A stretch of 7,267 nucleotides of DNA, from IMG/VR virus record IMGVR_UViG_3300005949_000047, one strand, 5' to 3'. Position numbers and translations under genes: made by a program. Numbering within the stretch: position 1 is the stretch's first letter; each line of letters opens with the position of its first letter. This document shows, piece after piece, positions 6,497 to 7,055 of this stretch. The stretch is from a virus. The notes below the pieces were generated by a model. The model did no database searches, was not told the origin of the DNA, and saw only the letters and a program-made list of their open reading frames with translations.

Positions 6497-6578
6497 GGTA
6501 ACAGTTACCAGAATATCGACGAACGGTACATTTATAGTAACGTTACCAGTATCTTATTATTGGTAACGTTACTATAAT
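6497..6578. promoter_or_regulatory. Operator array of GGTAAC(N0-1)GTTACC palindromes overlapping the promoter of the 156-aa gene
   Basis: Site 1 GGTAAC-A-GTTACC (6497-6509); site 2 aGTAACGTTACC (6536-6547); site 3 GGTAACGTTACt (6562-6573), abutting a perfect TATAAT (6573-6578). Sites 2 and 3 are part of a perfect 16-bp inverted repeat (6532-6547 / 6562-6577). A fourth perfect site, GGTAACGTTACC, lies inside the CDS at 6741-6752. Confidence 0.7.
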
Positions 6579-6611
6579 TACTCCATGGAAAGCAATCATG
6601 GAGACGCCGAA

Positions 6612-7055
6612 ATGATCGACCACACCGACACGCAAACCCAGCAGCTACCACTCGAAGTAAAGCGCAGCCGTGGTCGTCCAAAGACCGGCACTGCACTGAC
6701 TGCTGCGCAGAAACAAAAGGCATACCGCGAGCGCAATAAAGGTAACGTTACCGATAACTCGGCAGAAATCGAAGCGCTAAAAGCAGAGATTGAAGAACTA
6801 AAAATTGCCCTGGGAAAAGAGGTAATTGCCCGAAAAAAGGCCGAAGAAAGAGCAATTTTAGTAACTCAAAAAAGTGACCAAAATTCACAAGGAAAAGAAT
6901 GGATCATCGAGTTCCTGCCAGCTGGAAAACGCAAATGGATCATGACAGCCGAAAACGATAAGTTCACGACCGAGGAGAAAGCCTTGCGACGGATGAAGCA
7001 CTACCAAACACAAAAGCCAGGCTTGAAAATGCGAGTGAAAGAAAGCCTCGCATAA
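6612..7055 (+). CDS. Basic-region / coiled-coil (bZIP-like) putative DNA-binding protein of unknown function (147 aa; 156 aa from ATG 6585)
   Basis: GGAG lies 8 nt upstream of ATG 6612, while ATG 6585 lacks an SD. The basic segment KRSRGRPKTGTALTAAQKQKAYRERNK is followed by a heptad-like segment AEIEALKAEIEELKIALGKEVIARKKAEERA and then a C-terminal domain with no recognisable motif. This is accessory (non-backbone) gene content. Confidence 0.7.
   Translation: MIDHTDTQTQQLPLEVKRSRGRPKTGTALTAAQKQKAYRERNKGNVTDNSAEIEALKAEIEELKIALGKEVIARKKAEERAILVTQKSDQNSQGKEWIIEFLPAGKRKWIMTAENDKFTTEEKALRRMKHYQTQKPGLKMRVKESLA

Follow-up and report, generated by a model that had tools for sequence, protein, structure and literature searches.

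Palindromic GTNAC dyads at the promoter of a 147-aa protein gene in a filamentous phage: a candidate autoregulated operator-repressor cassette shared with related phages and plasmids

The viral DNA analysed here (IMG/VR record IMGVR_UViG_3300005949_000047; 7,267 nt, hereafter the window) is a complete filamentous phage genome: the terminal 120 nt at its two ends are identical, giving a circle of 7,147 bp. Four copies of a palindrome made of GTNAC pentamers lie in front of and within a gene (6612-7055) encoding a 147-aa protein. We consider it probable that these palindromes are operators of the product of this adjacent gene, and that gene and sites together form an autoregulated operator-repressor cassette of a new, RepB/CopG-like family. 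We infer binding, dimerisation, the base-reading element, the sign of regulation and the downstream role from sequence. The features of the region are the following:

6497-6509, no strand: putative operator O1 (distal), GGTAACaGTTACC, read as GGTAAC-a-GTTACC, with two GTNAC pentamers in dyad and a 1-bp spacer
6536-6547, no strand: putative operator O2, aGTAACGTTACC, with a perfect 10-bp core and an ACGT centre
6562-6573, no strand: putative operator O3 (proximal), GGTAACGTTACt, which fills the promoter spacer and has one base in common with the -10 box
6573-6578, plus strand: TATAAT, the -10 box of the promoter of the 147-aa gene, invariant in a 22-sequence footprint and accompanied by a weak -35
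6581-6603, plus strand: 5' leader hairpin CTCCATGG...TCATGGAG, which sequesters the Shine-Dalgarno sequence GGAG (6600-6603)
6612-7055, plus strand: gene for the 147-aa predicted DNA-binding protein, from alignments and an AlphaFold 2 (AF2) model
6741-6752, no strand: putative operator O4, perfect GGTAACGTTACC, in the coding sequence, where it encodes G44-N-V-T47 at the end of the basic helix and the hinge

The initial annotation had reported all four copies, and each was confirmed at its position. When a 12-mer was searched with up to two mismatches, four matches were found in the window compared to 0.13 expected, and none of 200 shuffled sequences reached four; three of these matches belong to the array and the other (1956-1967, two mismatches) looks like a chance occurrence. 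The N1 variant of the palindrome is unique in the window, and the 7,147-bp circle contains no further dyads outside 6497-6752, only isolated half-sites. Partial copies in rep had also been pointed out. They exist (GTAAC at 4889 and GGTAAC at 5617), but each is a single half-site rather than a dyad and, by our own arithmetic, approximately 0.5 such 8-mers are expected by chance; they were therefore rejected as functional sites.

The arrangement at the promoter is largely as first described. O3 abuts a perfect TATAAT box, with which it shares one base, and O2, which had been placed in the -35 zone, ends just upstream of the expected -35 position, although the -35 itself is poor (by our own reading, at most two of six positions match). 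Because of this poor -35, a promoter scanner run on the window did not call the promoter of the 147-aa gene. O4, the perfect copy inside the coding sequence, follows the basic region directly, as had been claimed. Since the sites overlap the gene's own promoter, the arrangement is consistent with autoregulation, as the initial annotation had proposed. Expression may also be limited at a second level: the RNA of the leader hairpin is predicted to fold with -10.4 kcal/mol (z = -2.2), its anti-Shine-Dalgarno CTCC pairing with GGAG, and the same type of pairing recurs with other sequences in phage 42-1 and in the related loci L010, L027 and L044 (L numbers denote related loci throughout), which suggests translational damping of the 147-aa gene.

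The start codon of this gene is most likely the ATG at 6612 (147 aa) and not that at 6585 (156 aa), because homologs and PHROG profiles begin at M-I-D and because the GGAG Shine-Dalgarno sequence lies 8 nt upstream of 6612. The protein is laid out as an N-terminal peptide (M-I-D..D..QT..L), an RGRP arm (residues 20-23), a basic helix (31-44), a hinge (45-49), a long helix (50-92) and an alpha/beta domain (95-146). The AF2 model built from 108 sequences has a mean predicted local distance difference test (pLDDT) score of 83 and shows residues 1-30, including the acidic N-terminal peptide M-I-D-x-x-D-x-Q-T, as disordered, followed by the basic helix, the hinge, the long helix (pLDDT 91-97) and the alpha/beta domain; a run with 12 sequences gave a similar model. 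In this single-chain model the 43-residue long helix is solitary and carries conserved hydrophobic residues at a/d positions (I53, L56, I60, L63 and L67). Residues M1, D3, D6, T9, L12, G21-R22-P23, A28, A32, Y38 and R39 are invariant across 26 diverse members. Pro or Gly is found at +5 to +21 from the invariant Tyr in 115 of 153 relatives (75%), in a linker of variable length.

Searches of Pfam and NCBIfam with the 147-aa protein gave no family, and the four PHROGs that match it (10506, 6334, 9651 and 23279) are all of unknown function. The AT_hook family (PF02178) is weakly matched by 5 of 41 members, the best at 17.1 bits against a cut-off of 17.4. When the two AF2 models were compared with PDB and BFVD, no fold match was found at E ≤ 0.001; weak matches of the C-terminal alpha/beta domain were to RbcS-like folds and small uncharacterized phage proteins. 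The gene had been regarded as non-backbone cargo with no canonical inovirus counterpart. It belongs to a conserved accessory module: the family comprises at least 863 clusters at 50% identity (E ≤ 1e-3) and, with an N-terminal profile, at least 1,188 clusters at 90% identity, all annotated as "hypothetical".

Using tblastn and a scan of viral contigs, homologs were identified in the Pseudomonas inoviruses 42-1, 5a-DAzarov and WX_Y, in Ralstonia phages including RS603 (ORF11) and RSS30, and in 80 metagenomic viral contigs. The initial annotation had proposed that conservation of the palindrome be checked in related phages, and a comparison of more than 60 related replicons showed the dyad module to be kept in approximately 60 non-identical loci, as well as in two Aeromonas plasmids. 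It begins with an AT-rich flank, which is followed by paired GTNAC pentamers forming a dyad, by a TATAAT-like -10 box and by the gene, usually with another dyad in the coding sequence; the layout was assessed in loci with enough upstream DNA and holds for most of these, ahead of the gene or of its small operon. In most related loci the proximal dyad abuts a TATAAT-like box approximately 48 bp before the ATG (or at the start of the operon), a second dyad lies 25-63 bp farther upstream, and a third, with a variable spacer, is frequent. Relative to the ATG, O2 occupies position -75 in loci of the window type and of classes B and C, and the distal site O1 is conserved in position while its spacer varies (N1 in the window, N9 in L009, N12 in L010 and 42-1). 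In one subgroup with 22 distinct upstream regions, identity is 99.5% in the dyads compared to 80% in the 45 bp in between. The AT-rich 5' operator flank (ATTTAT or ATTATT) is present in all classes, and in many lineages the dyad in the coding sequence is found just past the basic helix.

The module also follows the gene into other genome contexts. In Ralstonia RS603 it adjoins the gene despite a different genome layout; the gene is located upstream of rep in RS603 and in the Aeromonas plasmid p3, and next to attP in the Pseudomonas phages. Neither p3 nor the second plasmid, pTM18-3, has neighbour genes of the type of the window's 68-aa ribbon-helix-helix (RHH)-like gene (RHH68) or of the RstR type, and pTM18-3 also lacks an inovirus-type Rep. 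Plasmid p3 of Aeromonas caviae (L093; 1,774 bp) encodes only a regulator of the 147-aa family and an unannotated rolling-circle Rep; this Rep is of the REP_ORF2-G2P type (PF23343), with the motifs FLTLTF, HYHLLV and YIGKYIGK. Plasmid pTM18-3 of A. sobria (L092; 4,393 bp), which encodes a MobQ relaxase, carries three dyads upstream of the gene and one immediately past its stop codon.

Lineages differ in the central base, orientation and spacing of the dyad, and on this basis the sites were divided into operator classes (a hyphen alone marks the centre between abutting pentamers):

GTAAC-GTTAC: the window and most Pseudomonas-like contigs
GTGACgcGTCAC: P. aeruginosa phages
GTTAC-GTAAC: L027, L045 and L047
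GTTAC-N1/2-GTAAC: Ralstonia phages
GTCAC-GTGAC: L036
GTCACgcGTGAC: L054
GTAAC-N1-GTTAC: the 98-aa proteins

The class of the operator tracks the basic helix of the 147-aa family protein across phages and plasmids, in agreement with the pairing of palindromes and downstream protein made in the initial annotation; it is independent of whether an RHH- or RstR-type repressor is encoded next to the module, and it has no clear relation to the Rep lineage. In statistics that ignore phylogeny, Lys at position -4 from the invariant Tyr goes with GTAAC..GTTAC dyads (14 to 0 versus 2 to 8, counting distinct helices; Fisher p = 6e-5), and the association of Lys(-4) with the A-type dyad has p = 0.003 when 16 coarse lineages are counted instead. 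The residue at -7 shares 1.17 bits of mutual information with the operator class (permutation p = 5e-5): Pro or Ala is paired with A, Asn mostly with T, Asp with G and Gly mostly with C. A close comparison is provided by L054 and L064, which are 55% identical and have Gly and Asn at -7, with proximal operators GTCACgcGTGAC and GTTACgcGTAAC, respectively. The link between Lys(-4) and the A class is robust. A strict code of one residue for one base at -7 was rejected on account of the exceptions L069, L075, L054 and pTM18-3.

The dyad within the gene is under constraint as DNA. It matches the operator class of the promoter while the residues that it encodes vary (GNVT, SNVT, RNVT, VTVT and, in L036, MSRD). 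The codon before Asn is always NGT, followed by AAC-GTT-AC, whether Gly, Ser or Arg is encoded. Val is encoded by GTT in 14 of 15 in-gene dyads compared to 28% elsewhere in the same genes, and Asn by AAC in 15 of 15. This codon usage indicates that the synonymous positions of the in-gene dyad are constrained at the nucleotide level.

Based on these results, a mechanism can be proposed. The protein would act as a dimer in which each subunit carries a flexible reading head: the RGRP segment would lie as an AT-hook-like arm on the AT-rich flank, and the 14-residue basic helix (..A-x2-Q-x2-Y-R-x-R..) would enter the major groove of one pentamer in the manner of a basic leucine zipper (bZIP) protein. 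The two heads would be joined through the hinge by the long helix as a coiled coil or, in short relatives, by an RHH domain. Occupancy of O3, which covers the promoter spacer and contacts the -10 box, would shut the gene's own promoter (negative autoregulation), with assistance from O1 and O2 upstream and from O4 approximately 165 bp downstream in the gene, possibly by cooperativity or looping; the leader hairpin, by hiding the Shine-Dalgarno sequence, would limit expression further. The cassette is portable among dif-integrating inoviruses and small rolling-circle or mobilisable plasmids. As for its role, the position of the gene makes it most likely that the 147-aa protein is a replicon-specific regulator of the CopG or "RepB-RCR_reg" kind, acting on replication, copy number or lysogeny. 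Control of replication or lysogeny is suggested by the location of the gene ahead of rep in p3 and RS603 and beside attP in the Pseudomonas phages, and by a mirrored -10 box at O2 that points toward rep. We advance more tentatively, as a possibility on the doubtful side, that the family, undescribed so far and very widespread, consists of one reading head (arm plus bZIP-like helix) fused to varied dimerisation modules (RHH or coiled coil), with one or two helix residues (at -7 and -4) setting the central base of GTNAC, an operator lying in the protein's own coding sequence, and the operator classes serving filamentous phages and small rolling-circle plasmids as replicon "address labels" (immunity or incompatibility).

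Several points weigh against this interpretation. Its support is wholly comparative, and the covariation of helix and operator was, as noted, assessed without regard to phylogeny. The pairing at -7 has exceptions: L069 has Asn at -7 and the proximal site GTAACgcGTTAC, pTM18-3 has Gly with GTTACatGTAAC, L075 has Ala with GTCAC..GTGAC, and L054 has mixed sites. The window has no dyad at the rep promoter or at any other gene. The poor -35, together with the centring of O2 near -43, makes positive autoregulation conceivable. VT and VTVT peptides automatically spell GTNAC, so protein conservation contributes to the in-gene match and may explain part of that site, although it does not account for the choice of synonymous bases. 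Finally, in the short relatives the beta-strand of the RHH domain (VTVT), rather than the basic helix, could be the element that reads the bases.

Other proteins or processes might account for the palindromes. The initial annotation had offered the 68-aa RHH-like protein (5901-6107) as an alternative binder, the 147-aa gene then being merely its target. It is a plausible small DNA-binding protein (with a weak NikA-like match and membership in PHROG 5642) encoded on the same strand 400 bp upstream, but the neighbours of the module are exchanged without any change in the sites: identical class A operators and basic helix are found with an RHH68-type neighbour (9 loci), with an RstR-type helix-turn-helix (HTH) neighbour (16) and with neither (10), RstR-type neighbours occur with operator classes A, G and T, and the Ralstonia phages and Aeromonas plasmids retain the module with no neighbour of either type. 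Furthermore, the divergent region between rep and the RHH gene has a motif of its own, ATGTATAC, present in three copies compared to 0.09 expected. Because of these neighbour swaps and this separate candidate motif, the 68-aa protein was rejected as the binder, and we regard that explanation as extremely improbable. The dyads might instead be origin iterons bound by the rolling-circle initiator Rep (G2P), since gpII of the Ff phages binds repeats at the origin, the dyads are at the edge of the structured large intergenic region, and each Rep clade has a single operator class at a 75% identity cut-off. However, the Rep of L056 (class G) is approximately 70% identical to class A Reps such as that of L015, while the window's class A Rep shares only 45-48% identity with Reps of other class A loci; the module always accompanies the promoter and coding sequence of the focal gene, including genomes in which rep has another location or is of a different type (RS603, p3 and pTM18-3), and the dyad in the coding sequence would be left unexplained, all of which makes an iteron function very improbable. 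A role as single-stranded DNA (ssDNA) or RNA hairpins, such as a minus-strand origin, an ssDNA promoter or a packaging signal, is somewhat less remote but still improbable. Filamentous phages do use such ssDNA hairpins, and O2 and O3 as ssDNA would form a stem of 17-20 bp on either strand (dG of approximately -20 kcal/mol; z = -7.3 and -6.2) that restores the duplex dyad plus the TATA element, but such z-scores arise automatically, as any two copies of one palindrome can pair. The distance between O2 and O3 differs among lineages (26 or 63 bp), the copies in the coding sequence and in plasmids and the covariation with the protein would go unexplained, and a search of Rfam over the whole window found nothing. 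A hairpin role could coexist with operator function.

Two further alternatives retain the 147-aa protein as the binder. In one, it would read the dyads with an RHH-type beta-ribbon (N-V-T or V-T-V-T) placed on the ACGT core, the helix and arm making flanking contacts only, so that recognition would be of the CopG/RepB-RCR_reg type and not bZIP-like. The short relatives (85-111 aa) have a predicted strand-helix-turn-helix pattern after the basic helix; one of them, L071, weakly matches RHH_1 (PF01402; E = 0.0056, 17.0 bits against a cut-off of 20.5) and RepB-RCR_reg (PF10723; E = 0.067), the latter family being weakly matched by 3 of 41 relatives (best E = 0.031). Aligned with these short members by hhalign (99.7% probability, E = 5e-26, 66 columns covering the N-terminal module and the strand/helix A region), the window protein places NVTDNSAEIEALK.. 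on the strand and helix A, and its ALGKE could be the RHH turn. On the other hand, the window protein itself has no Pfam match to RHH_1 or RepB-RCR_reg, and its AF2 model shows residues 50-92 as one straight helix with no strand and thus no RHH fold. Many class A proteins have no NVT strand (..KAQRYEKSD.. or ..KQKAAPELG..) and the same operators, the VTVT strand is constant across lineages that differ in operator class, and spacings of N0 to N12 within one protein class could not be followed by a central ribbon; recognition by a ribbon is therefore unlikely in our view, though it deserves to be kept in mind. In the other alternative, the protein would be primarily an accessory factor of XerCD at the adjacent dif-like attP, acting in integration or excision, with promoter binding secondary. 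The two sites concerned are:

7045-7073, plus strand: attP1, dif-like, GCCTCGCATAA-TGGACG-TTATGGATAAAT, overlapping the stop codon of the 147-aa gene
7130-7159, minus strand: attP2, inverted dif-like; the prophage/host crossover is at its TTATGCGAACC arm

In favour of this, attP1 takes in the end of the gene, host dif is the integration site of the phage, and class B and class T phages have a class-specific dyad 12-40 bp upstream of attP1. In contrast, the window phage has no dyad near attP, only the degenerate aTAACGTcAt; neither in RS603 nor in the Aeromonas plasmids was a dif-like arm found to adjoin the gene; the protein has no similarity to the XafT/VC1465 family; and the perfect attP2 dyad of many class A phages (GTAACGTTAC) corresponds to GTAACGTCAC in class T, so that it belongs to attP2 itself and is independent of the class. 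The regulator may be linked to Xer recombination, but a primary function of this kind seems to us quite unlikely. The perfect dyad at attP2 was also considered as a class-specific operator and rejected, as class T carries an A-like sequence at the same place. Among the dyads observed upstream of attP1 are the class B site CGTGACGTCACG in L002 (phage 42-1; 4449-4460) and in L059, and those of class T in L027, L045 and L047, approximately 155-170 bp past the stop codon; the attP2 dyads of the class A phages L010-L043 are approximately 273-301 bp past it.

Returning to the operator-repressor interpretation, the resemblance to bZIP proteins that was proposed in the initial annotation stood in part. 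The succession of a basic and a heptad helix, the motif Q-x-A-[YF]-R-E-R and the abutting half-sites around an ACGT core (GTAAC-GTTAC in the N0 dyads of the window) are shared with the Yap/Pap1 bZIPs and their sites. A profile search of PDB gave a Yap-type bZIP as the best match, with E = 0.46 using 16 sequences and E = 0.015 using 41, and FosB and c-Fos at E = 3-6; the Yap-type alignment falls on the basic helix (QRAYRER/QRAFRER). Pap1 contacts its site AGGTTACGTAACC via N86, Q90, R94 and R96 (PMC3111461), and these contact residues have the same spacing as N-x3-Q-x2-Y-R-x-R in the class C and D proteins, the operators of which also share the GTTAC-GTAAC half-sites of the Pap1 complex (PDB 1GD2; site AGGTTACGTAACC). 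Some operator classes equal the Pap1 site (GTTACGTAAC) and the cAMP response element of CREB/ATF (TGACGTCA; class B site CGTGACGTCACG). True membership in the bZIP family was nevertheless rejected. Neither the window protein nor any of 41 relatives matches the bZIP families of Pfam (PF00170 and PF07716) at E ≤ 1, and the profile match of the window's family is not significant. The helix is interrupted in the AF2 models by a hinge of variable length, with Pro or Gly (in 75% of relatives), before the heptads, and half-site spacing is flexible, from N0 to N12 within one protein class. The Asn of the bZIP N-x7-R signature is present in classes C and D only, being replaced by Ala in the window, Pro or Ala in class A, Asp in class B and Gly in class E, while Arg (R39) and the preceding Tyr are invariant in the family. 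The family also adds the RGRP arm and the N-terminal peptide, and some relatives have an RHH domain in place of a zipper. The likeness to bZIP proteins is probably that of a convergent analogue. Taken as a whole, the family is best viewed as a transferable, predicted reading head of arm and basic helix attached to dimerisation modules of different kinds, with kinship to RepB/CopG-type regulators.

Closer functional parallels may exist among bacterial regulators. Like CopG (RepA) of pMV158 and the RepB-RCR_reg proteins, the 147-aa family would be a small dimeric repressor encoded beside its own palindromic promoter operator, dimer and repression being predicted here; like them it occurs on rolling-circle replicons, where it is sometimes encoded directly upstream of rep (p3 and RS603), and the 42-1 homolog is annotated in GenBank as "replication regulatory protein RepB". 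In contrast to CopG, the window protein has a long single helix and an alpha/beta domain rather than an RHH fold, and its gene is not in an operon with rep; CopG has neither the N-terminal peptide, the RGRP arm nor the basic helix. Proteins that combine a minor-groove arm with a major-groove helix include Skn-1 and Hin recombinase, with its GRPR arm. The 147-aa family likewise has R-G-R-P just N-terminal to the presumed recognition helix, and AT-rich flanks at its operators; the arm-DNA contact is putative, as the AT-rich flank may instead consist of -10 promoter elements. CTXϕ RstR, the Pf4 repressor and the RSS/RSM repressors likewise have their genes in regulatory or intergenic regions of integrative inoviruses and act on phage genes via operators, and RstR-type genes adjoin the module in many loci. 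Those repressors, however, are HTH or lambda-like proteins divergent from rep, whereas the 147-aa family is a separate, second regulator. A literature search covering bZIP-like phage proteins, the operator strings and RSS1 ORF11 found neither a functional study nor an account of a bZIP-like regulator in phages; the Ralstonia homolog appears only as an "RSS1-ORF11-like ORF" among unknown ORFs (PMC4471427).

If confirmed, these predictions would provide a function and a cognate DNA motif for a large orphan family whose members in phages and plasmids of Pseudomonas, Aeromonas and Ralstonia are listed as "hypothetical". The circuitry of dif-integrating inoviruses, including phages of P. aeruginosa and of plant pathogens that affect virulence, would then contain a second regulator. 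The family would represent a natural series of matched proteins and operators with all four central bases and several spacings, and thus an unusually clean system for studying the evolution of DNA specificity and for building orthogonal repressors. Bacterial viruses would also be seen to possess, through convergence or distant ancestry, a counterpart of the way in which bZIP proteins recognise ACGT-core dyads.

Two additional elements are located between O1 and O2:

6517-6527, no strand: conserved CGACGAACGGT motif, identical in the Pseudomonas phages 42-1 and 5a and in class C loci
6531-6536, minus strand: mirror-image -10-like box TATAAA abutting O2, read on the minus strand as GTAACGTTAC-TATAAAT

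The CGACGAACGGT motif is identical across these phages and loci although their operators differ. It lies next to the minus-strand TATAAA (6517-6536 for the two together), which with the abutting O2 mirrors O3 plus TATAAT; this layout recurs in L009 (with TATAAT) and in class B and class C loci. In relatives, the mirror box reads TATAATT in L009, GATAAAT in class C and, more weakly, CTTAATT in the large class A group. The TATAAA at O2 may represent a divergent leftward promoter directed toward the intergenic region, the antisense strand of the RHH gene and rep.

Further patterns were observed in the nucleotide sequence of the gene. At 6861-6878 a GTAAC-N8-GTGAC pair coincides with a second "VT", also conserved, where the long helix ends. 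Pentamer pairs at this second "VT" are also found in L001 (at approximately +266) and in class A loci (at approximately +299 to +314), and class B has GTCACgcGTCAC, a direct repeat; these may be weak extra sites or by-products of the peptide. The codons of the N-terminal peptide (6612-6638) are strongly biased at synonymous positions among 55 distinct genes, with Gln8 encoded by CAA in 31 of 34 cases (background 35%) and Ile2 by ATC in 39 of 42 (background 50%), which hints at a constraint at the nucleotide level here too.

In the remainder of the genome, the minus strand carries rep (G2P) and the genes for the ssDNA-binding protein, the coat protein, a pIII-like protein, DUF2523 and zot, while the plus strand carries the 68-aa RHH-like gene (5901-6107) and the 147-aa gene. 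The three copies of ATGTATAC lie at 5804-5837 within a 24-nt imperfect inverted repeat, near a predicted minus-strand promoter (5858-5829), and are probably operators through which the 68-aa protein would control rep.

A prophage copy of the window phage was found at a Pseudomonas-type dif site, and Pseudomonas is the source of its close relatives; a scan of a genome collection for relatives gave a single one, Pseudomonas sp. LjRoot71. At the junctions of the L004 prophage, host dif ATTTAACATAATATACATTATGCGAACC is followed by phage sequence on the left, and phage sequence ending in ...TGTATTATGCGAACC is followed by host sequence on the right. As in the attP of CTXϕ, the window phage has two inverted dif-like sites. 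The XerC-arm sequence of attP1 encodes the C-terminal ..SLA* of the 147-aa protein, which is kept in relatives. In many relatives, including L010, L013, L020 and L045, approximately 200 bp that resemble coding sequence of the opposite strand separate the stop codon of the regulator from attP1, an extra segment that the window does not have. When the whole genome was compared with phage genomes by megablast, the sole match was a 36-bp intergenic stretch (6143-6178) that is 100% identical to Pseudomonas phage 17897 (OR621025) and includes a GTGGGGGTG...CACCCCCAC hairpin; this stretch may be an origin or packaging element.

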